Source of the DNA: Eledone cirrhosa
Taxonomy: Eukaryota
Length of the DNA stretch: 64,000 nt
Direction of reading: 5' to 3'
NCBI GenBank assembly: GCA_964016885.1
Contig: OZ024751.1
Span: forward strand, 8,742,001 to 8,806,000
A program made the translations under genes and the position numbers. The notes under the pieces were generated by a model that worked only from the letters and a program-made list of their open reading frames with translations, made no database searches and was not told the origin of the DNA. Each line of letters begins with the position of its first letter. Within the stretch, counting starts at the first letter, position 1. Positions 10,907-57,955 of the stretch are shown one piece after another.

Positions 10907-10954
<48 letters not shown>

Positions 10955-11169
10955 GTGAGGTTTTTTTTTACAAAATGAAAAATAACCGAGGTGTCCTACA
11001 CAAGTGAAAGTTTAAAGAAAAAGAAATGTGAGAAAAAAAAACAGATCCTCCATCTCAACTCACCTTTTGAGAAGCAGAAGAACTGCGAAACCGGTAAAGG
11101 AAACAAATAAATATATGTATTTAAACAAAAAAAAATAAGACTCCAGTTGCATTTTCGATTTCATCTCTT

Positions 11170-13140
<1,971 letters not shown>

Positions 13141-41299: not shown

Positions 41300-42520
41300 C
41301 GAACAGTATTGGTATTTACGAATATTAGTTGTTTAAAATGTGTTTATAATATATTTTCCTTCTGTTATATGTATATAAATAAATACATAAATAAATAAAT
41401 AGATGGGTATATCATGTTATAGATCATTGTTTTAATGAGTTATGAGGGATATTGGTTTTGTATTTTATTGAAAAAATATTGAAAAAATATTGAGAAAGTA
41501 TTGAAAAAAATATTGAAAATGTATTGAAAAAAATGTTTATTTTAATAATTTTTATTTCTTTAATATTTATTTCTTTAAAAATTACTTATCTCTTATAAAT
41601 TATTATTTTTTTCGTTCTCTCAAATTTTTCAATATGTTTTCAATATTTTTTCAATAGATTTATAACCACTATCTGGTTCTGGCTAAATGTATCTTCAACA
41701 TCTATACTTATTTTGAATAAATAGTCTCACACTAACGAATAAATAAATTAAACCCGAGTTTTTTCAGTATCTCCCCATTTTCAATCATATAAATATAAAT
41801 ATTCATCTTAACTCAGTTAATTTAATTTAACTTAATATTTATTTACATAAAATACAAAACCAATATACCCCATAACTCATTAGAACAATGATCTATAACA
41901 TGATATATCCATCTATTTATTTATTTATTTATTTATGTATTTATCTACTTATAACAGAAGGAAAATATTATATTAAAAACAAATTTTAAACAACTAATAA
42001 TCGTAAATACACGTACTATTAAGATATATACTTAGAATATATTTCCCTTAAATTAACATTATATGAGGTTTTACTCATCTTCCCTTTTTTTTTTCTTCTC
42101 TCTCTTTCTATCGCACTACTTTATCCTTCTTTTCTTCTCTCTCCCTCTCCATAGTCGTTTAAATAAACGGTTGTTTTTCAATTATTTACATATTCATTTG
42201 CATATTCACCCATAAGTTTGAAAAATCCCTAATATATTTCAACTATCTAGAGAATATCCAACCGATAAGGTATGATTTTCATGAGTATGTCTCTATTTAT
42301 AAAACAAACTTTGTATTTTATCTGAGGAAAGCGTACCAATGTGTTTTTGTAGCCTTGAAATATTTATAATAAAATAAATATGGTTTTATATATATAGTTT
42401 CCATCTATTTAATATCATTGAACATTTACTCCAGTAACTGTTGAGTGCTCTAAATCAGTTATAAACATTTATATTTGTCGGACTTCCAACAAATTAAATA
42501 CCCTTCCACTTATATGAATA
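41300..42520. mobile_element. PLE terminal-repeat-like element with inverted left arm (about 41300-41475 vs 41850-42018)
   Basis: Reverse-complement match; same family as 5940-6275. Confidence 0.7.
42315..42375 (+). ncRNA. Minimal hammerhead ribozyme
   Basis: attttat-CTGAGGA-...-GAAA-tattta-TA-ataaaat; stem II weak. Confidence 0.6.
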
Positions 42521-42530
42521 TATATATATG

Positions 42531-42610
<80 letters not shown>

Positions 42611-42714
42611 TGTATATATAGTGTATTTTGCAATACACTGTATGCTTAATTAAAAGCATTTCGAAGACCTTATGCTATTGTTTTATAGTAGTGACATACT
42701 CACTTACTTTAATT

Positions 42715-42804
42715 TTCAGCAAACAGGGGGAGACAAAGCTGACAATGCCTTGTTTCGCATTTATTGATGCTTATCAAAGCCAACTACTCCTCATGTTTGC
42801 TGAA
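42715..42804 (-). ncRNA. Hammerhead ribozyme, U3-A8 core variant
   Basis: Minus strand: ggct-TTGATAA-gcat-caataa-atgc-GAAA-caaggcattg-TC-agct; distal stem ttcagcaaaca/tgtttgctgaa. Confidence 0.8.
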
Positions 42805-42950
42805 ATCATGCTGAAATATATACATTCATATATATATATCTATTTCAGAGCACCAATTCTAATTTTCAATTTCTGCTTGACCGGCAACCGTTCTGTATAA
42901 TCAGTTCCTGATTATTTACTGGAATTCTATAAGAACCAAATATCCATGAT

Positions 42951-43040
42951 TTCAGCAAACAGGAGGAATAGTTGGCTTTGATAAGCATCAATGAATGCGA
43001 AACAAGGCCATGTCAGCTTTATCTCCCCCTGTTTGCTGAA
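42951..43040 (+). ncRNA. Hammerhead ribozyme, U3-A8 core variant
   Basis: ggct-TTGATAA-gcat-caatga-atgc-GAAA-ca-aggcca-tg-TC-agct; 13-bp distal stem 42951-42963/43028-43040. Confidence 0.82.
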
Positions 43041-43289
43041 AATTAAAGTAGGTGAGTCTGTCACTACTCTAAAACAATAGCATAAATCCTGCCAGAAATA
43101 GATTTAAAAAATGGCTAAGAATCGTGACATGGCAGTGGTCAAGTTAGAAAGAATGTGATTAGTTGCTTACGGCTAGTAGGCTGGTTGCTAGAAAGCGCAG
43201 CCCAATATCGCCCAAATTGCATCTCAACCCAACGGGAGATTATTAAATATAAAGATTTAAATATACATAAAGTCATATATATATATGTG

Positions 43290-43575
43290 GCAACCGTTCA
43301 CGATGTGGCTCAATGAATAATTAATAAATTAAATAATCAGAGCAATATATCATAAATCATGTTCCTAGAATCAGAGATAAAATATATTTAACTAATTCTT
43401 CTCCCAATTTGCATAATTAACCATATAAAAAATCAATTAGACAAGGCTATAAGAATAAAGGCTCCTATGGAGAAATATTTGATAAATAACTAATTCTACT
43501 AATTGGGAGAGGAAATAGTATATATATTTTATCTATGATTCTGGGGACATGATTTATGATGTATTGCTCTGATTA
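43290..43575. repeat. Short inverted-arm element, same family as 57532-57920
   Basis: 43335-43415 is reverse complementary to 43495-43575. Confidence 0.7.
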
Positions 43576-43580
43576 TACAT

Positions 43581-44048: not shown

Positions 44049-44656
44049 GTCAGGTCACCAGTTGGTGCTACTGGTAACATGTATCCCAGTACAACCTGTC
44101 TCATGGTCGGGTCGTTGGCGACTAAACTGGCAACCTCACCAAGGTTTCTTGGTGAGGAGGGTGACTTTGGACATCCTGCAGAACTAAAAACAAAACCTGT
44201 CAAATGGCAAAGGAGCTCGTAAGAGTCAATGGCCATCCAAAATCACCGGGAGAGATGACCCCTTAGCCTTTGTCAAGGCAGAATTCTAGGAGAAGGAAAA
44301 CTCTGATATAACACCTGCAACCCTGATGGTATCCAATGATGTTGACTTCTTCTTCTTTTTTGTAAATATCATCTTGGCTAAGAGAGTGGGACTGGCTTTG
44401 TGCAGTGTCTTTGCTCACTATAAAAGCTTCATGGCACAGGCATTGCTTTATATCTGGAGATCTCTCTGCACTTGTCATGACATGGTACCATGTGCCCAGC
44501 ACTATGTGTCAATAATTGTCAGAAGTGTAGTGTTTTTACCAGAGTTTTCAAGACACTGGCTGGACTAAATAGTCACACTCGTTTAGCGCATCGGTAGGGG
44601 TTCTCCTACATGGATATAAAGTAGTGGCCGTACTCGAAAACGAGTTGGCAGCCACC
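44049..44656 (+). repeat. About 600-bp dispersed element in (TA)n
   Basis: Copy of 39352-39965. Confidence 0.85.
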
Positions 44657-44794
44657 ATATATATATATATATATGTATATATATATGTATATATATCCAA
44701 AATTAAATTAAGGGTTGTCATGTCTGAGAGACATGCGCCATATCCACTGTAGAATAAGCTCGAAGATTCTAATGAATAGATCCAAGCATTTTAT

Positions 44795-45155
44795 AACAAC
44801 TAGAATTAGATTGACATATTTATAGATAAGATAAACATATGAAACAATCACAGGGAATAGTTTGTAAAGTGTGTAAGCACACATAGCTAGGTAGGTAACC
44901 AATTAGAGTTTAGCTAGAACTTCAAATATAGATTTAAAATGATTAATGGTGAAATATATGTTTTATTTAAAGAGATTAATCATTTTATTTAAAGGAGATT
45001 AATCATCTTAAAAGGTATCTATATTTGAAGTTCTAGTTAAACTTTAATTAGTTACCTACCTAGCTATGTGTGCTTACACACTTTACAAATTATTCGGTGT
45101 GATTTTTTTTTTATAAGTTAATTTTATATATCTATATGTCAATCTATTTCTAGTT
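44795..45155. repeat. Fold-back inverted repeat with arms of about 135 bp
   Basis: gtaaagtgtgtaagcacacatagctaggtaggtaac..gaacttcaaatatagat versus its reverse complement at 45017-45155. Confidence 0.8.
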
Positions 45156-45205
45156 AATATATGTATATATATATGTATATATATACATATATATATGTAT
45201 GTATG

Positions 45206-45270
<65 letters not shown>

Positions 45271-45274
<4 letters not shown>

Positions 45275-47550
45275 ATAAATGCTCTGAAATAGCGATATAT
45301 ATGTGAATATAGACATAGAATATTCGAAAATATTCTGTATGTTTATAATAAACATTTTGAAGACCTAATCGCTATAGAATAGAATACGTCACGTATTACA
45401 ATTAGATTCTCGATAAAAGCAAGGGAAGTAATCTACGCGTTTCATTCTCGTTAGAAATCATCAGGACTACATATCCAGTGCTTTTATCGAGAATGACACA
45501 GCTAGAGACTTATAGAATACTTAGCTGTGTACAGGAACTGGTTTGAAAGAGCGGTTGCCGGTCCGGCAGAAATTAGAAATTGGAATAAATGCTCTGAAAT
45601 AGCGATATATATGTGAATATAGACATAGAATATTCGAAAATATTCTGTATGTTTATAATAAACATTTTGAAGACCTAATCGCTATAGAATAGAATACGTC
45701 ACGTATTACAATTAGATTCTCGATAAAAGCAAGGGAAGTAATCTACGCGTTTCATTCTCGTTAGAAATCATCAGGACTACATATCCAGTGCTTTTATCGA
45801 GAATGACACAGCTAGAGACTTATAGAATACTTAGCTGTGTACAGGAACTGGTTTGAAAGAGCGGTTGCCGGTCCGGCAGAAATTAGGAATTGGAATAAAT
45901 GCTCTGAAATAGCGATATATATGTGAATATAGACATAGAATATTCGAAAATATTCTGTATGTTTATAATAAACATTTTGAAGACCTAATCGCTATAGAAT
46001 AGAATACGTCACGTATTACAATTAGATTCTCGATAAAAGCAAGGGAAGTAATCTACGCGTTTCATTCTCGTTAGAAATCATCAGGACTACATATCCAGTG
46101 CTTTTATCGAGAATGACACAGCTAGAGACTTATAGAATACTTAGCTGTGTACAGGAACTGGTTTGAAAGAGCGGTTGCCGGTCCGGCAGAAATTAGAAAT
46201 TGGAATAAATGCTCTGAAATAGCGATATATATGTGAATATAGACATAGAATATTCGAAAATATTCTGTATGTTTATAATAAACATTTTGAAGACCTAATC
46301 GCTATAGAATAGAATACGTCACGTATTACAATTAGATTCTCGATAAAAGCAAGGGAAGTAATCTACGCGTTTCATTCTCGTTAGAAATCATCAGGACTAC
46401 ATATCCAGTGCTTTTATCGAGAATGACACAGCTAGAGACTTATAGAATACTTAGCTGTGTACAGGAACTGGTTTGAAAGAGCGGTTGCCGGTCCGGCAGA
46501 AATTAGAAATTGGAATAAATGCTCTGAAATAGCGATATATATGTGAATATAGACATAGAATATTCGAAAATATTCTGTATGTTTATAATAAACATTTTGA
46601 AGACCTAATCGCTATAGAAAAGAATACGTCACGTATTACAATTAGATTCTCGATAAAAGCAAGGGAAGTAATCTACGCGTTTCATTCTCGTTAGAAATCA
46701 TCAGGACTACATATCCAGTGCTTTTATCGAGAATGACACAGCTAGAGACTTATAGAATACTTAGCTGTGTACAGGAACTGGTTTGAAAGAGCGGTTGCCG
46801 GTCCGGCAGAAATTAGAAATTGGAATAAATGCTCTGAAATAGCGATATATATGTGAATATAGACATAGAATATTCGAAAATATTCTGTATGTTTATAATA
46901 AACATTTTGAAGACCTAATCGCTATAGAATAGAATACGTCACGTATTACAATTAGATTCTCGATAAAAGCAAGGGAAGTAATCTACGCGTTTCATTCTCG
47001 TTAGAAATCATCAGGACTACATATCCAGTGCTTTTATCGAGAATGACACAGCTAGAGACTTATAGAATACTTAGCTGTGTACAGGAACTGGTTTGAAAGA
47101 GCGGTTGCCGGTCCGGCAGAAATTAGAAATTGGAATAAATGCTCTGAAATAGCGATATATATGTGAATATAGACATAGAATATTCGAAAATATTCTGTAT
47201 GTTTATAATAAACATTTTGAAGACCTAATCGCTATAGAATAGAATACGTCACGTATTACAATTAGATTCTCGATAAAAGCAAGGGAAGTAATCTACGCGT
47301 TTCATTCTCGTTAGAAATCATCAGGACTACATATCCAGTGCTTTTATCGAGAATGACACAGCTAGAGACTTATAGAATACTTAGCTGTGTACAGGAACTG
47401 GTTTGAAAGAGCGGTTGCCGGTCCGGCAGAAATTAGAAATTGGAATAAATGCTCTGAAATAGCGATATATATGTGAATATAGACATAGAATATTCGAAAA
47501 TATTCTGTATGTTTATAATAAACATTTTGAAGACCTAATCGCTATAGAAT
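45271..47550 (-). repeat. 310-bp tandem array, left arm (7.35 units, 7 complete HHRs); retrozyme-like
   Basis: tggaataaat recurs at 45271, 45581, 45891 ... 47441. Confidence 0.97.
45406..45494 (-). ncRNA. Type I hammerhead ribozyme (first of 7 in the left arm, every 310 bp)
   Basis: Reverse complement of 47828-47916. Confidence 0.92.
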
Positions 47551-50500
47551 ATGATTTCTAACGAGAATGAAACGCGTAGATTACTTCCCTTGCTTTTATC
47601 GAGAATCTAATTGTAATACGTGACGTATTCTATTCTATAGCGATTAGGTCTTCAAAATGTTTATTATAAACATACAGAATATTTTCGAATATTCTATGTC
47701 TATATTCACATATATATCGCTATTTCAGAGCATTTATTCCAATTTCTAATTTCTGCCGGACCGGCAACCGCTCTTTCAAACCAGTTCCTGTACACAGCTA
47801 AGTATTCTATAAGTCTCTAGCTGTGTCATTCTCGATAAAAGCACTGGATATGTAGTCCTGATGATTTCTAACGAGAATGAAACGCGTAGATTACTTCCCT
47901 TGCTTTTATCGAGAATCTAATTGTAATACGTGACGTATTCTATTCTATAGCGATTAGGTCTTCAAAATGTTTATTATAAACATACAGAATATTTTCGAAT
48001 ATTCTATGTCTATATTCACATATATATCGCTATTTCAGAGCATTTATTCCAATTTCTAATTTCTGCCGGACCGGCAACCGCTCTTTCAAACCAGTTCCTG
48101 TACACAGCTAAGTATTCTATAAGTCTCTAGCTGTGTCATTCTCGATAAAAGCACTGGATATGTAGTCCTGATGATTTCTAACGAGAATGAAACGCGTAGA
48201 TTACTTCCCTTGCTTTTATCGAGAATCTAATTGTAATACGTGACGTATTCTATTCTATAGCGATTAGGTCTTCAAAATGTTTATTATAAACATACAGAAT
48301 ATTTTCGAATATTCTATGTCTATATTCACATATATATCGCTACTTCTGAGCATTTATTCCAATTTCTAATTTCTGCCGGACCGGCAACCGCTCTTTCAAA
48401 CCAGTTCCTGTACACAGCTAAGTATTCTATAAGTCTCTAGCTGTGTCATTCTCGATAAAAGCACTGGATATGTAGTCCTGATGATTTCTAACGAGAATGA
48501 AACGCGTAGATTACTTCCCTTGCTTTTATCGAGAATCTAATTGTAATACGTGACGTATTCTATTCTATAGCGATTAGGTCTTCAAAATGTTTATTATAAA
48601 CATACAGAATATTTTCGAATATTCTATGTCTATATTCACATATATATCGCTATTTCAGAGCATTTATTCCAATTTCTAATTTCTGCCGGACCGGCAACCG
48701 CTCTTTCAAACCAGTTCCTGTACACAGCTAAGTATTCTATAAGTCTCTAGCTGTGTCATTCTCGATAAAAGCACTGGATATGTAGTCCTGATGATTTCTA
48801 ACGAGAATGAAACGCGTAGATTACTTCCCTTGCTTTTATCGAGAATCTAATTGTAATACGTGACGTATTCTATTCTATAGCGATTAGGTCTTCAAAATGT
48901 TTATTATAAACATACAGAATATTTTCGAATATTCTATGTCTATATTCACATATATATCGCTATTTCAGAGCATTTATTCCAATTTCTAATTTCTGCCGGA
49001 CCGGCAACCGCTCTTTCAAACCAGTTCCTGTACACAGCTAAGTATTCTATAAGTCTCTAGCTGTGTCATTCTCGATAAAAGCACTGGATATGTAGTCCTG
49101 ATGATTTCTAACGAGAATGAAACGCGTAGATTACTTCCCTTGCTTTTATCGAGAATCTAATTGTAATACGTGACGTATTCTATTCTATAGCGATTAGGTC
49201 TTCAAAATGTTTATTATAAACATACAGAATATTTTCGAATATTCTATGTCTATATTCACATATATATCGCTATTTCAGAGCATTTATTCCAATTTCTAAT
49301 TTCTGCCGGACCGGCAACCGCTCTTTCAAACCAGTTCCTGTACACAGCTAAGTATTCTATAAGTCTCTAGCTGTGTCATTCTCGATAAAAGCACTGGATA
49401 TGTAGTCCTGATGATTTCTAACGAGAATGAAACGCGTAGATTACTTCCCTTGCTTTTATCGAGAATCTAATTGTAATACGTGACGTATTCTATTCTATAG
49501 CGATTAGGTCTTCAAAATGTTTATTATAAACATACAGAATATTTTCGAATATTCTATGTCTATATTCACATATATATCGCTATTTCAGAGCATTTATTCC
49601 AATTTCTAATTTCTGCCGGACCGGCAACCGCTCTTTCAAACCAGTTCCTGTACACAGCTAAGTATTCTATAAGTCTCTAGCTGTGTCATTCTCGATAAAA
49701 GCACTGGATATGTAGTCCTGATGATTTCTAACGAGAATGAAACGCGTAGATTACTTCCCTTGCTTTTATCGAGAATCTAATTGTAATACGTGACGTATTC
49801 TATTCTATAGCGATTAGGTCTTCAAAATGTTTATTATAAACATACAGAATATTTTCGAATATTCTATGTCTATATTCACATATATATCGCTATTTCAGAG
49901 CATTTATTCCAATTTCTAATTTCTGCCGGACCGGCAACCGCTCTTTCAAACCAGTTCCTGTACACAGCTAAGTATTCTATAAGTCTCTAGCTGTGTCATT
50001 CTCGATAAAAGCACTGGATATGTAGTCCTGATGATTTCTAACGAGAATGAAACGCGTAGATTACTTCCCTTGCTTTTATCGAGAATCTAATTGTAATACG
50101 TGACGTATTCTATTCTATAGCGATTAGGTCTTCAAAATGTTTATTATAAACATACAGAATATTTTCGAATATTCTATGTCTATATTCACATATATATCGC
50201 TATTTCAGAGCATTTATTCCAATTTCTAATTTCTGCCGGACCGGCAACCGCTCTTTCAAACCAGTTCCTGTACACAGCTAAGTATTCTATAAGTCTCTAG
50301 CTGTGTCATTCTCGATAAAAGCACTGGATATGTAGTCCTGATGATTTCTAACGAGAATGAAACGCGTAGATTACTTCCCTTGCTTTTATCGAGAATCTAA
50401 TTGTAATACGTGACGTATTCTATTCTATAGCGATTAGGTCTTCAAAATGTTTATTATAAACATACAGAATATTTTCGAATATTCTATGTCTATATTCACA

Positions 50501-52352
50501 TATATATCGCTATTTCAGAGCATTTATTCCAATTTCTAATTTCTGCCGGACCGGCAACCGCTCTTTCAAACCAGTTCCTGTACACAGCTAAGTATTCTAT
50601 AAGTCTCTAGCTGTGTCATTCTCGATAAAAGCACTGGATATGTAGTCCTGATGATTTCTAACGAGAATGAAACGCGTAGATTACTTCCCTTGCTTTTATC
50701 GAGAATCTAATTGTAATACGTGACGTATTCTATTCTATAGCGATTAGGTCTTCAAAATGTTTATTATAAACATACAGAATATTTTCGAATATTCTATGTC
50801 TATATTCACATATATATCGCTATTTCAGAGCATTTATTCCAATTTCTAATTTCTGCCGGACCGGCAACCGCTCTTTCAAACCAGTTCCTGTACACAGCTA
50901 AGTATTCTATAAGTCTCTAGCTGTGTCATTCTCGATAAAAGCACTGGATATGTAGTCCTGATGATTTCTAACGAGAATGAAACGCGTAGATTACTTCCCT
51001 TGCTTTTATCGAGAATCTAATTGTAATACGTGACGTATTCTATTCTATAGCGATTAGGTCTTCAAAATGTTTATTATAAACATACAGAATATTTTCGAAT
51101 ATTCTATGTCTATATTCACATATATATCGCTATTTCAGAGCATTTATTCCAATTTCTAATTTCTGCCGGACCGGCAACCGCTCTTTCAAACCAGTTCCTG
51201 TACACAGCTAAGTATTCTATAAGTCTCTAGCTGTGTCATTCTCGATAAAAGCACTGGATATGTAGTCCTGATGATTTCTAACGAGAATGAAACGCGTAGA
51301 TTACTTCCCTTGCTTTTATCGAGAATCTAATTGTAATACGTGACGTATTCTATTCTATAGCGATTAGGTCTTCAAAATGTTTATTATAAACATACAGAAT
51401 ATTTTCGAATATTCTATGTCTATATTCACATATATATCGCTATTTCAGAGCATTTATTCCAATTTCTAATTTCTGCCGGACCGGCAACCGCTCTTTCAAA
51501 CCAGTTCCTGTACACAGCTAAGTATTCTATAAGTCTCTAGCTGTGTCATTCTCGATAAAAGCACTGGATATGTAGTCCTGATGATTTCTAACGAGAATGA
51601 AACGCGTAGATTACTTCCCTTGCTTTTATCGAGAATCTAATTGTAATACGTGACGTATTCTATTCTATAGCGATTAGGTCTTCAAAATGTTTATTATAAA
51701 CATACAGAATATTTTCGAATATTCTATGTCTATATTCACATATATATCGCTATTTCAGAGCATTTATTCCAATTTCTAATTTCTGCCGGACCGGCAAGCG
51801 CTCTTTCAAACCAGTTCCTGTACACAGCTAAGTATTCTATAAGTCTCTAGCTGTGTCATTCTCGATAAAAGCACTGGATATGTAGTCCTGATGATTTCTA
51901 ACGAGAATGAAACGCGTAGATTACTTCCCTTGCTTTTATCGAGAATCTAATTGTAATACGTGACGTATTCTATTTTATAGCGATTAGGTCTTCAAAATGT
52001 TTATTATAAACATACAGAATATTTTCGAATATTCTATGTCTATATTCACATATATATCGCTATTTCAGAGCATTTATTCCAATTTCTAATTTCTGCCGGA
52101 CCGGCAACCGCTCTTTCAAACCAGTTCCTGTACACAGCTAAGTATTCTATAAGTCTCTAGCTGTGTCATTCTCGATAAAAGCACTGGATATGTAGTCCTG
52201 ATGATTTCTAACGAGAATGAAACGCGTAGATTACTTCCCTTGCTTTTATCGAGAATCTAATTGTAATACGTGACGTATTCTATTCTATAGCGATTAGGTC
52301 TTCAAAATGTTTATTATAAACATACAGAATATTTTCGAATATTCTATGTCTA

Positions 52353-52356
<4 letters not shown>
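47551..52356 (+). repeat. 310-bp tandem array, inverted right arm (15.5 units, 15 complete HHRs plus 1 truncated)
   Basis: atgatttcta recurs at 47551, 47861 ... 52201; ends in (TA)n. Confidence 0.97.
47828..47916 (+). ncRNA. Type I hammerhead ribozyme (first complete of 15 in the right arm); predicted cleavage after A47888 (GUA)
   Basis: attctcgataaaagca..gtagtc-CTGATGA-t-ttct-aacg-agaa-t-GAAA-cgcg-TA-gattac..tgcttttatcgagaat; perfect 16-bp distal stem I; palindromic acgcgt. Confidence 0.93.
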
Positions 52357-52415
<59 letters not shown>

Positions 52416-52539
52416 AGGATAAATATTGATGCAATTCAATTCAAGCACTCAACGTACTTTTCCACATAGGAGTGACGGAGTAAATATCGAATAAGGAAAA
52501 GCGAAGTAGTTTCAGATGTTCAAGTCCTTTAATGATAAT

Positions 52540-52613
52540 GCTGTGATATATATTTCAATGACGACACTGGCCACACTGTTCTGTGTGCGAGTGTCGTGTC
52601 ATCATCAGACAGC
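52540..52613 (-). ncRNA. Type I hammerhead ribozyme with long stem II
   Basis: Minus strand: gctgt-CTGATGA-tgacacgacact...agtgtcgtca-tt-GAAA-tatata-TC-acagc. Confidence 0.85.
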
Positions 52614-53815
52614 TTGTTACATAATAAGGTTGTTTCCGAGGCAATCCAAATTGAATCGACATGGGAACGGATGAAGTTCGTGCTTTTGGGTTTTTCATCC
52701 GTTCCCTTGTGAGTAACAATTCACCCCCACCGGTCTGCGCAAGCTCATGTCCGTAGGAAGTGGACCATTAGCCACCGCATATTTCAACGCAATTCGCTGT
52801 CAGTTCACCCTCTCAGCCAAAACGATAGCCCACCTATGCCCTACCAAAGTTAACTGCTACCCATCACTACTGTGGCAGTCAGCCGAAAGCCAGAGGGGAT
52901 GGGAGTGTGTTAGTTTTTATAGCGTTGACAGTAAGACTGACCATCAACTTATACCGGAAAATAAACTTAATTCTAGGTACTAGGGTTTTACATTGTAGGT
53001 TAAGAGTGAGAGTTGGAAATAAAAATTAAAAAGTAAAAATCCTAAATCAAATATCAGAGATTATAAATTAACCAATTAAAAATTAAAAAATTCTAAATTC
53101 AAAAATGTTTCAAGTGATAATTCGGATTGAGTGAAAATATAGATTGAAGTGAGTAAATAATATGGAGAGAGATGTTTAAGTAATAAGTTCTGAGAGGGAT
53201 TCTAGTGTCACAGTTACTCTATCCACATATTGAGCGACAGTGCCGTACATTATAACGGAGGGCAAACTACATGGTTCAAGGCATTAGTCAATCTGTTACA
53301 CGGTCATAATTTCCATCACATGGAACAAAATCTAAGAAAAACAGACATACAGTACACAAAAGAAAAGAACCGAACCGATAGTGAATAAATGCAAAAACAC
53401 AGAGTACATATATACAAAATGATGCATATGATTGTCCATCTGTCCATGTATAGATTGAATTGAGGGGGCTTCTGTTCAAATGTGATTTGGTGCAGAAAAA
53501 TATGGGTTTATCTTATTTTTTGTTTCCGCGTATTATTTAACCTGCCGAAAGTTACTATTACGCCCGTCCAGTGTCAGGTGTTTTCATCCCCATGGTAGAG
53601 GGAATTTCCGAGGTAGATCTTGGTTGGTTCCTCTCTTCTCCACCATATCGGTTACATCATAGAGCGCTCAACTAATCGGAGCTAAATTATTAGGGTAAAT
53701 ATTGATGCAATTCAATTCAAGCACTCAACGTACTTTTCCACATAGGAGTGACGGAGTAAATATCGAATAAAGAAAAGCGAAGTAGTTTCAGATGTTCAAG
53801 TCCTTTAATAATAAT

Positions 53816-53889
53816 GCTGTGATATATATTTCAATGACGACACTGGCCACACTGTTCTGTGGGCGAGTGTCGTGTCATCATCAGACAGC
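53816..53889 (-). ncRNA. Hammerhead ribozyme, second unit
   Basis: Same fold as 52540-52613; core intact. Confidence 0.85.
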
Positions 53890-55114
53890 TTGTTACATAA
53901 TAAGGTTGTTTCCGAGGCAATCCAAATTGAATCGACATAGGAACGGATGAAATTTGTGCTTTTGGGTTTTTCATCCGTTCCCTTGTGAGTAACAATTCAC
54001 CCCCACCGGTCTGCGCAAGCTCATGTCCGTAGGAAGTTGACCATTAGCCACCGCATATTTCAACGAAATTCGCTGTCAGTTCACCCTCTCAGCCAAAACG
54101 ATGGCCCACCTATGCCCTACCAAAGTTGACTGCTACCCATCACTACTGTGGCAGTCAGCCGAAAGCCAAAGGGGATGGGAGGGTGTTAGTTTTTATAGGT
54201 CATAATACTACTCTTCACTAAGCGTTGACAGTAAGACTGACCATCAACTCATGAGAGAAAATACACTTAATTCTAGGTACTATGGATTTACATTGTAAGT
54301 TAAAAGTGAGAGTTGGAAATAAAAATTAAAAATTAAAATTCTAAATCAAATATCAGAGATTATAAATTAAACAATTAAAAATCAAAAAATTCTAAATTCA
54401 AAAATGTTTCAAGTGATAATTCGGATTGAGTGAAAATATAGTTTGAAGTGAGTAAATAATATGGAGAGAGATGTTTAAGTAATAAGTTCTGAGAGGGATT
54501 CTAGTGTCACAGTTACTCTATCCACATATTGAACGACAGTGCCGTACATTATAACGGAGGTGAAACTACATGGTTCAAGGCATTAGTCAATCTGTTACAC
54601 GGTCATAATTTCCATCACATGGAACAAAATCTAAGAAAAACAGACATACAGTCCACAAAAGAAAAGAAAAGAACAGAACCAATAGTGAATAAATGCAAAA
54701 ACACAGAGTACATATATGCAAAATAATACATATGATTGTCCATCTGTCCATGTGTAGATTGAATTGAGGGGGCTTCTGTTCAAATGTGATTTGGCGCAGG
54801 AAAATAGGGGTTTATCTTATTTTTTGTTTCCGCGTATTTAACCTGCCGAAAGTTACTATTACGCCCGTCCAGTGTCAGGTGTTTCCATCCGCATGGTAGA
54901 GGGAATTTCCGGGGTAGCTCTTGGTTGGTTCCTCTCTTCTCCACCATATCGGTTACATCATAGAGCGCTCAACTAATCGGAGCTAAATTATTAGGGTAAA
55001 CATTGATGCAATTCAATTCAAGCACTCAACGTACTTTTCCACATAGGAGTGACGGAGTAAATATCGAATAAAAAAAAGCGAAGTAGTTTCAGATGTTCAA
55101 GTCCTTTAATAATA

Positions 55115-55302
55115 ATTGTTTCTACGTTTGGCACAAGGCCAGCAATTATCCAGTGCATTACTGGTACTTTATTTTATCGACCCCGTAAGGATGAAAGGCA
55201 AAGTTAACCTCGGCGGGATTTGAACTCAGATCGTAAAGGGACGTAACTATGCTGGAAAGCATGGCGTCCGACCTTCTACCGATACTGCCAAATCACCGCC
55301 AT
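55115..55302 (-). mobile_element. tRNA-derived SINE inserted in the third 1.3-kb unit with a TSD of about 16 bp
   Basis: aagtcctttaataata / aagttctttaataata flank it; absent from units 1 and 2. Confidence 0.9.
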
Positions 55303-55320
55303 AAGTTCTTTAATAATACT

Positions 55321-55394
55321 GCTGTGATATATATTTCAATGACGACACTGGCCACACTGTTCTGTGTGCGAGTGTCGTGTCATCATTAGACAGC
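55321..55394 (-). ncRNA. Hammerhead ribozyme, third unit, G5A substitution (probably inactive)
   Basis: Core reads CTAATGA on the minus strand. Confidence 0.7.
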
Positions 55395-56649
55395 TTGTTA
55401 CATAATAAGGTTGTTTCCGAGGCAATCCAAATTGAATCGACATGGGAACGGATGAAGTTCGTGCTTTTGGGTTTTTCATCCGTTCCCTTGTGATTCCCAA
55501 TTCACCCCCACCGGTCTGCGCAAGCGCATGTCAGAACGAAGTTGACCATTAGCAACTGCATATTTCAACGAAATTCGCTGTCAGTTCACCCTCTCAGTCA
55601 AAACAATGGCCCAGCTATGCACTACCAAAGTTTATTGCTACCCATCACTAATGTGGCAGTCAGCCGAAAGCCAGAGGGGATGGGAGGGTGTTAGTTTTTA
55701 TAGGTCATAGTACTACCCTTCACTAAGCGTTGACAGTAAGACTGACCACCAACTGATAAGGGAAAATAAACTTAATTCTAGGTACTATGGTTTTACGTTG
55801 TAGGGTAAGAGTGAGTGTTGGAAATAAAAATTAAAAATTAAAATCCTAAATCAATTATCAGAGATTATAAATTAATCAATTAAAAATTAAAAAATTCTAA
55901 ATTCAAAAATTTTTCAAGTGATAATTCGGATTGAGTGAAAATATAGATTGAAGTGAGTAAATAATATGGAGAGAGATGTTTAAGTAATAAGTTCTGAGAG
56001 GGATTCTAGTGTCACAGTTACTCTATCCACATTTTGAACGACAGTGCCGTACATTATAAGGGAGGGCAAACTACATGGTTCAAGGCATTAGTAATCTGTT
56101 ACACGGTCATAATTTCAATCACATGGAACAAAATCAAAGTAAAACAGACATATAGTACACAAAAGAAAAGAAAAGAACAGAACCAATAGTGAATAAATGT
56201 GGAAAAGTACGTTGAGTGCTTGAATTGAATTGCATCAATGTTTACCCTAATAATTTAGCTCCGATTAGTTGAGCGCTCTATGATGTAACCGATATGGTGG
56301 AGAAGAGAGGAACCAACCAAGAGCTACCCCGGAAATTCCCTCTACCATGGGGATGAAAACCCCTGACACTGGACGGGCGTAATAGTAACTTTCGGCAGGA
56401 TAAATACGCGGAAACAAAAAATAAGATAAACCCATATTTTCCTGCACCAAATCACATTTGAACAGAAACCCCCTCAATTCAATCTATACATGGACAGATG
56501 GACAATCATATGTATCATTTTGCATATATGTACTCCGTGTTTTTGCATTTATTCACTATTGGTTCTGTTCTTTTCTTTTCTTTTGTGTACTGTATGTCTG
56601 TTTTTCTTTGATTTTGTTCCATGTGATGAAATTATGACCGTGTAACAGA

Positions 56650-57386: not shown

Positions 57387-57531
57387 TACATATATATACA
57401 CATACATATATATATATTATATATATATATACATACAGATACATACATACATATATATATACATACATATATACATATATGTATATACATATATATATAC
57501 ATATGTATATACATATATATATATATATATA

Positions 57532-57920
57532 TCATGAAATATGTCTATAGAATAACAAGATACAATATATACTATTTCCTCTCCCAATTAGCATAATTAA
57601 TTCTATTCCTCCTAGTTTATTTTAAACCTAATTCTGTTTAGTTGACTATATCTAGGCGATTACGCTGTCGAAATATTCGATAAATATTCCGCTACGGCCG
57701 ACGCGAAGCGCTAGTTTCGGTATTTGTCGGAGAGTCCTTCATAGAATCCTCATTCGTATAGCCTGGTCTATTTGATTTTTTTATATAGTTAATTATGCTA
57801 ATTGGGAGAGGAAATAGTATATATTTTATCTTGTGATTATATAGACATGTTTTATGATATATAGCTCTGATTGTTTAATTTATTAATTTTTCATTGAGCC
57901 ACAAAATGACCAGTTGCAAA
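57532..57920. repeat. Short inverted-arm element in (TA)n
   Basis: 57532-57600 is reverse complementary to 57790-57860; family shared with 43290-43575. Confidence 0.7.
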
Positions 57921-57955
57921 ACACGTATATGTATGTGTATGTATATATATGTAAA

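Follow-up and report, generated by a model that had tools for sequence, protein, structure and literature searches.

The sequence between positions 42592 and 43085 of the window (the whole 64,000-nt stretch of Eledone cirrhosa DNA analysed here) is a single head-to-head inverted insertion of a 320-bp repeat unit, both arms of which carry a hammerhead ribozyme motif with a U3-A8 pair in its core. We read this insertion, with a probability of about 0.75, as a non-LTR retrozyme, i.e., a non-autonomous derivative of Penelope-like elements (PLEs), whose cycle would include cleavage of dimers. The 320-bp repeat is a new family, while the U3-A8 core and the element class have both been published and no new chemistry is proposed. 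The covariation of C3-G8 to U3-A8 was first reported in nature in several hammerheads (Perreault et al. 2011, PMC3088659), and U3-A8 was also found in PLE hammerheads of Schistosoma mansoni, with ~1,300 matches (Cervera and de la Pena 2014, PMC4209133), so that the novelty of this core implied by the original prediction does not stand. Non-LTR retrozymes were defined, and their circles shown, by Cervera and de la Pena (2020, PMC7229834) and have been argued to be non-autonomous PLE derivatives (Li, Clavereau and Pollet 2026, bioRxiv 10.64898/2026.07.22.740005); U3-A8 retrozymes are unmentioned in the accessible text of these two papers, as are ribozymes in that of an octopus repeat annotation (PMC13282606). 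A keyword search of the literature outside Repbase, supplements and most subscription papers found no description of the 320-bp family or of any U3-A8 retrozyme.

The inverted insertion and its two hammerheads

The window is AT-rich and contains many (TA)n runs, in an assembly of 3.0 Gb. One of them, a (TA)n microsatellite found with TRF at 42518..42620, is of the family's target-site type, and the element's left 3' end extends into it. The left arm (42592..42810, minus strand) is inverted and 5'-truncated, holds ~220 of the 320 nt of the unit with the 3' end outward, and reaches unit position ~149 at about 42592; the element starts there, inside the TA run, and not at 42637 as had been claimed. 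The right arm (42816..43085, plus strand) holds ~270 of the 320 nt, and each arm is 96% identical to an array unit. Both 3' ends of the insertion face outward, and the stretches 42670-42810 and 42945-43085 form an inverted repeat of 141 nt. The two arms, which had been presented as two diverged copies lending independent support to each other, are one inverted duplication, 94% complementary. The right arm breaks off ~78 nt before the usual 3' end of the unit and is joined at 43085/43086 to another repeat family of high copy number (3,282 candidates, best matches 94-97%). This TA-associated family occupies 43086-43580 and 57520-57930, with inverted arms at 43333-43390/43519-43576, and the 320-bp right arm meets the middle of the repeat, by deletion or template switch.

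On the plus strand, folding and alignment place the hammerhead module at 42951..43040. It comprises a 13-bp distal stem (42951-42963/43028-43040), stem I (42974-42977/43015-43018), the core box UUGAUAA (TTGATAA; 42978..42984, with U3 at 42978 and A8 at 42983), a 4-bp stem II with a 6-nt loop (42985-42988/42995-42998), the GAA box (42999-43001), helix III (43002..43013) and C17 of the GUC site at 43014, 3' of which cleavage is predicted from the motif. Helix III is a 12-nt near-palindrome with a mismatch at 43010, and is a perfect palindrome in the main subfamilies. The minus strand carries a second type I hammerhead (42741..42777), with its core at 42777-42771, C17 of its GUC at 42741 and the helix III palindrome broken at 42746. 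Three helices surround the core boxes, helix I closes the structure and the site is GUC (NUH), as in type I hammerheads generally. UUGAUAA, stems I-III and GUC are thus found in both arms where the original prediction had put them. Its further claim of intact stems holds for the presence of the helices, but not in full, since helix III is substituted at 43010 in the plus arm and at 42746 in the minus arm; the plus arm also departs from the family majority at 42968 and at 42993 (loop 2).

The stretch 42951-43040 folds at z = -6.9 (0/200 shuffles as good), a value largely owed to the 13-bp distal stem; the copy on the minus strand folds at z = -3.2 (1/200), and trimmed cores of 61-63 nt reach a z of only about -2. 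At the gathering score, Rfam returned no match in the window and also missed the canonical hammerheads there. In E-value mode, the minus arm matched Hammerhead_HH9 (RF02275; type I clan CL00010) with 19.4 bits and E 0.029, which, at a gathering cut-off of 52, leaves it outside Rfam membership. Topology and stem II length of HH9 match those of the 320-bp hammerhead, whose loop 2 has the HH9 consensus loop length and, in one subfamily, also its letters. The other Rfam E-value matches, mostly of miRNA models to TA repeats and the fold-back, were rejected as chance.

The copy in the window is probably a dead or inert product of its family, since there is one sense hammerhead per strand, each helix III is mutated and the ribozyme in a read-through RNA would pair with the antisense copy of itself. 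When the whole insertion was folded as one RNA, 35 of the 37 bases from U3 to C17 paired with the antisense arm. A sequencing run of another organism gave a contig over 42821-43006 with 29 differences and a depth of ~4, and positions 42978 and 42983 were unchanged among the rows listed, which is only a hint that U3-A8 is older than this species.

U3-A8 in the 320-bp family and in other elements of the genome

Searching the genome with a 241-nt query gave 1,927 candidates, 40 of which, when scored, contained 100 matches, the full-length ones with 93-97% identity. These matches included an array on contig C14, 10 kb of which hold 27 cores spaced 320-321 bp apart. The unit has a period of 320-321 bp and 34% GC, contains a type I hammerhead in each repeat and is too short for a reverse transcriptase (RT); as a circular monomer it folds at z -5.6 relative to mononucleotide shuffles. 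A pattern with positions 3, 7 and 8 left free had 295 genomic matches (0 for the reversed control), of which 291 were U3-A8 and none had the literal C3 and G8 of the hammerhead consensus; the four exceptions were one C3 with A8 and three U3 without A8. With stem II freed in the pattern there were 1,839 matches (100 U3 and 99 A8 among the first 100 listed), and a helix III pattern had 2,102 matches on many contigs, with dispersed monomers, dimers and multimers. These looser patterns put the family at about 1,800-2,100 copies of the unit. A narrow search, with at least 12 matches, all on contigs C1-C4, was used solely to fetch loci.

Our alignment has 59 rows, representing 50 distinct copies, out of 67 extracted. 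Six copies from loci picked as core variants (L031-L034) and two with irregular flanks were left out, and array loci had been set aside beforehand. The 3-8 pair is U-A in 50/50 distinct copies, in agreement with the earlier proposal that the double change C3U+G8A keeps this Watson-Crick pair. The columns of U4, G5, A6 and A9 and of G12, A13 and A14 are invariant or nearly so, and helices I (4 bp proximal), II and III are paired in 94.5-97.5% of cells. The family is fixed for U3-A8, and the pair is not a product of sporadic decay; the genome-wide count speaks against a CTGATGA consensus, the outcome that had been named as fatal to the original prediction. The invariance of the copies is mostly shared ancestry, a few masters having given rise to them. 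Whereas U3-A8 hammerheads were reported as scattered survey examples in PMC3088659, the 320-bp repeat is a retroelement family fixed for this pair. In one 320-bp array (L069; G000:C14:23499240-23508133), unit variants recur with a period of ~12 units, suggesting that blocks of the array were later duplicated at the DNA level.

A 310-bp retrozyme array lies nearby at 45269..52367 (TRF), with 7.4 units on the minus strand and 15.5 on the plus strand, inverted at 47551. All 22 cores found in it read CTGATGA, with a short palindromic helix III and a GUA site. Between the 320-bp and 310-bp units, identity is 79% in one flank (z 14.5) and 69% in the other (z 8.5), while the hammerhead modules reach ~50% with gaps (z 1.7; 16/300 shuffles as good), and in both units the core starts 138 nt past a shared anchor. 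Homologous flanks around unrelated helices had been predicted, and these comparisons bear the prediction out. The conserved upstream flank (42840..42935, plus strand; the 79% segment) includes a ~20-nt tail segment and may be a protein-recognition region; its pattern has 16,481 genomic matches, mostly of the 310-bp type among the matches listed. With collinear flanks and a hammerhead module that does not align significantly, the 320-bp family is sister to the C3-G8 310-bp family.

Several other repeats of the window were noticed in passing. Directly upstream of the 310-bp array lies a TA-flanked element (44650-45160) with inverted arms at ~44860-44945 and 45010-45095, the sequence of which also flanks copies at two other loci (L008 and L067). 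A ~1.3-kb tandem repeat at 52412-56630, inverted near 56190, has a canonical-core hammerhead on the minus strand (52608-52545 and 53884-53821) in which the stem II region spans 45 nt and helix III is an (AT)4 palindrome, and one of the repeat's units contains a SINE-like insert (about 55120-55310). Further canonical-core candidates with palindromic helix III lie in other repeats at 34626-34595 and 13966-13895, both on the minus strand.

Searches for GIY-YIG elements gave 10,596 candidates, of which 150 were scored, and long RT-GIY-YIG frames are present; such ORFs sit in elements other than the 320-bp unit, which is itself no autonomous PLE. One locus (L144; G000:C1:145868000-145877500) is an autonomous RT and GIY-YIG PLE with a 938-codon frame and a CxxxxCxxC linker. 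Its two pseudo-LTR (pLTR) copies lie 4,979 bp apart, and each has a U3-A8 hammerhead unrelated to the 320-bp one, ~150 nt upstream of the TA-joined end. This minimal hammerhead has a 6-nt palindromic helix III and a GUA site, and its motif has 6,288 genomic matches, with U3-A8 in all of the first 100 listed. The window contains one at 11067..11096 (plus strand), within a TA-flanked pLTR fragment of this PLE type (10950-11180). Beyond TA repeats, no similarity to the 320-bp unit was found in 12 hammerhead-centred pLTR stretches, and at 48 GIY-YIG loci (from the 150 of 10,596 candidates scored) there was no pLTR homology to the unit, all matches being separate insertions. The PLE protein gave no relative of solved structure at E 0.01. 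A third unrelated U3-A8 element, seen once (L137:2205-2235, plus strand), has a 6-nt palindromic helix III, ends in TA ~200 nt downstream and lies near a GIY-YIG match. Four other loci (L146, L147, L150 and L153) belong to an autonomous PLE family that has a canonical CUGAAGA hammerhead with a GUU-type (U17) site in its 3' region and ends in TA.

Covariation and the palindromic helix III

In the 50 distinct copies, the proposed helices are paired in 94.7% of cells, compared with 33-47% in slid controls. Four pairs vary with compensation: the second pair of stem II (CG37/UA10), the fourth pair of stem II (UA28/CG19/UG3), the fourth pair of helix III (GC21/AU16, switching between A-U and G-C from one subfamily to another) and the inner pair of helix III (columns 59/62; GC22/AU21/GU4 between subfamilies). 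The compensations total about four events. Pairs changed on both sides number 5 compared with 4.1 in shuffles, 172/500 of which were as good, so there is no excess; cell-based measures of covariation, for which 0/500 shuffles were as good, are inflated by the relatedness of the copies. The inner helix III pair would enclose just two bases in a hairpin, and thus can form only between two hammerheads, on two molecules or two units.

Three perfect 12-nt palindromes make up 53 of the first 100 helix III sequences (33, 16 and 4 by hand count). Their self-duplexes are computed at -19.5 to -24.3 kcal/mol and their hairpins at 0 to -1.8, and on these models the palindromic helix III of the family points to cleavage as a dimer. 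The hammerhead dimer model and the 3-8 pair have been treated previously (PMC6765202, PMC3884650), and the dimeric minimal hammerheads of PLEs were found to cleave slowly and with low activity (PMC4209133). The hammerheads of Cercyon PLEs in S. mansoni resemble the 320-bp family in U3-A8, PLE context, palindromic helix III and a predicted dimer; they are, however, minimal and mostly single, with a long helix II, an extra base after A9 and a poorly defined loop 1 (PMC4209133), whereas the 320-bp hammerhead lacks the extra base, closes its 4-bp stem II with a 6-nt loop and sits in a short tandem unit.

It is unlikely, although one of the two main rival readings and a variant of the same picture, that the hammerhead acts as a monomer, in which 4 bp of helix III and a contact between loop 1 and loop 2 would suffice and the palindrome would have no role or serve as an alternative route. 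A helix III hairpin of 4 bp around a 4-nt loop can form, whereas animal hammerheads typically have 1-2 bp there (PMC4209133), and a monomeric copy of a coral retrozyme cleaved at ~0.8 per min (PMC7229834). Variants in which the fourth pair of helix III is mismatched recur and were amplified as well (14 of the first 100 listed); for one of them the computed self-duplex is only -7.3 kcal/mol. A monomer does not account for the switch from G-C to A-U at an inner pair that no hairpin can form, and the hairpin is far weaker than the dimer duplex (~-20 kcal/mol).

Cleavage as a dimer could in principle be linked to a switch. An alternative monomer helix of 7 bp, which joins U3-U4-G5 and the helix I 5' strand to the first half of helix III, is paired in 94.9% of cells across subfamilies, and energy models favour a core-sequestering fold in 47/50 copies. 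It is a long shot that U3-A8 has been tuned, having become fixed independently in two or more unrelated, highly amplified families of the PLE system, and that in the 320-bp family it makes, together with the long palindrome, a monomer-off, dimer-on switch, the core being freed only by the 12-bp dimer duplex. If so, circles would be protected and only multimers cut. The other hammerheads compared, canonical ones included, are also predicted to favour other folds over the active monomer, by 5-10 kcal/mol (the control took in correctly registered hammerheads, with the row for the 310-bp family left out). That canonical-core families misfold likewise weakens the switch, and a conserved off-switch specific to the 320-bp family was rejected on this ground.

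Quite improbable is the view that the U3-A8 hammerhead is a dead or near-dead relic, the double change having arisen once in an AT-biased genome and spread without cleavage. Both changes would run from G/C to A/T in a unit of 34% GC, and Naiad PLEs proliferate without canonical hammerheads (PMC8557442). In the only PLE reconstituted in vitro, hammerhead cleavage needed the protein, and insertion did not need cleavage, being unimpaired by hammerhead mutants (PMC11167929); for the anole PLE, the protein is reported to stimulate cleavage. Against a relic, the subfamilies told apart by compensations in stems II and III all carry U3-A8 already, which argues that the structure was kept after the core had switched. 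Moreover, U3-A8 recurs in the unrelated autonomous PLE and in the element seen once, and ribozymes with the U3-A8 covariation were active in vitro according to PMC3088659.

Insertion ends and mode of spread

At 45 distinct sites of the family, 35 carry both orientations, 34 of them with the 3' ends outward, and 10 have a single orientation. Arm lengths and inversion points vary among the copies. Among 102 end anchors, 35 continue into the next unit, 28 end at a TA tract of at least 16 nt, 21 end in TA after a ~20-nt tail and 3 end after the tail otherwise; the remaining 15 are unclassified, a class that includes misclassified read-throughs. The 3' ends lie ~149 and ~169 nt past the cut site, and not at the cut site itself. 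Target-site duplications of non-LTR retrozymes, if present, are >4 bp, and the elements end within (TA)n, where such duplications would be hidden.

The 320-bp family thus shows 5' truncation, an inverted 5' copy, an optional 3' tail and TA microsatellite flanks. PLEs are known for 5' truncation, inverted 5' copies, tails and a microsatellite bias (PMC8557442), and their tail corresponds to the distance between two internal start sites of the RT (PMC11167929). Neptune-type PLEs with a C-terminal GIY-YIG domain share all of these features with the 320-bp family, together with a hammerhead upstream of the 3' end; their tail, however, measures 30-40 nt compared with ~20 (PMC8557442), and the 320-bp unit is called non-coding and has no likeness to the autonomous pLTRs examined. 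The minimal hammerheads of S. mansoni likewise occur as opposite-strand pairs, 100-700 bp apart (PMC4209133).

The same observations bear on two explanations that dispense with retrotransposition. That the repeat is a satellite spread by DNA-level recombination, with no RNA step, is very improbable. Long homogeneous arrays with higher-order variant patterns may well grow by unequal exchange, but the short copies, scattered over many contigs, have fixed 3' ends as well as tails and inverted 5' parts, and their covariation is of the RNA type, including G-U pairs; a pure satellite was rejected on the dispersed copies with fixed ends and on this covariation. A MITE or fold-back DNA transposon with a TA preference, whose terminal inverted repeats would be the arms and whose hammerhead likeness would be incidental, has a negligible chance of being correct: the 141-nt complementary arms do lie beside TA repeats, but fixed terminal inverted repeats are absent, the variable 5' truncation contradicts it, arm lengths and inversion points differ, 10 of the 45 sites have a single orientation, head-to-tail arrays exist and the 310-bp sister array inverts alike at 47551.

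The retrozyme reading places the 320-bp family beside the metazoan non-LTR retrozymes, which also have a non-coding tandem unit of 150-450 bp with GC <50% and one type I hammerhead per unit, occur as monomers, dimers and arrays, have a self-paired predicted circle and are proposed to depend on PLEs. The 320-bp family differs from them in having U3-A8 throughout, a 13-bp distal stem and, for helix III, a 12-nt palindrome instead of 1-2 bp and a tetraloop; it also stands out by its (TA)n targeting, its tails and its head-to-head inversions. On this reading, the 320-bp unit would borrow the RT and GIY-YIG endonuclease of a TA-targeting PLE. A tandem array would be transcribed, and two neighbouring hammerheads would form a double hammerhead by pairing of their 12-nt palindromes in helix III, a step that the covariation supports. 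The double hammerhead would cut after GUC and release monomers of ~320 nt, which may be circularised as in the coral, mussel and axolotl retrozymes. By analogy with PLEs, the PLE protein would then nick (TA)n and begin reverse transcription at two internal positions of the RNA, ~149 and ~169 nt downstream of the cut site, giving rise to the 5'-truncated, often more-than-unit and head-to-head inverted insertions that are observed.

As had been anticipated, screens with CUGANGA alone are blind to U3-A8 cores and would miss about 8,000 such motifs in this genome. Since one of the pairs compensated in helix III is possible only between two molecules or units, the changes between subfamilies are an uncommon case of comparative evidence in favour of the double-hammerhead model. 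With sister retrozyme families of C3-G8 and U3-A8 type and an autonomous U3-A8 PLE in one genome, E. cirrhosa offers a natural, high-copy test of the 3-8 pair.
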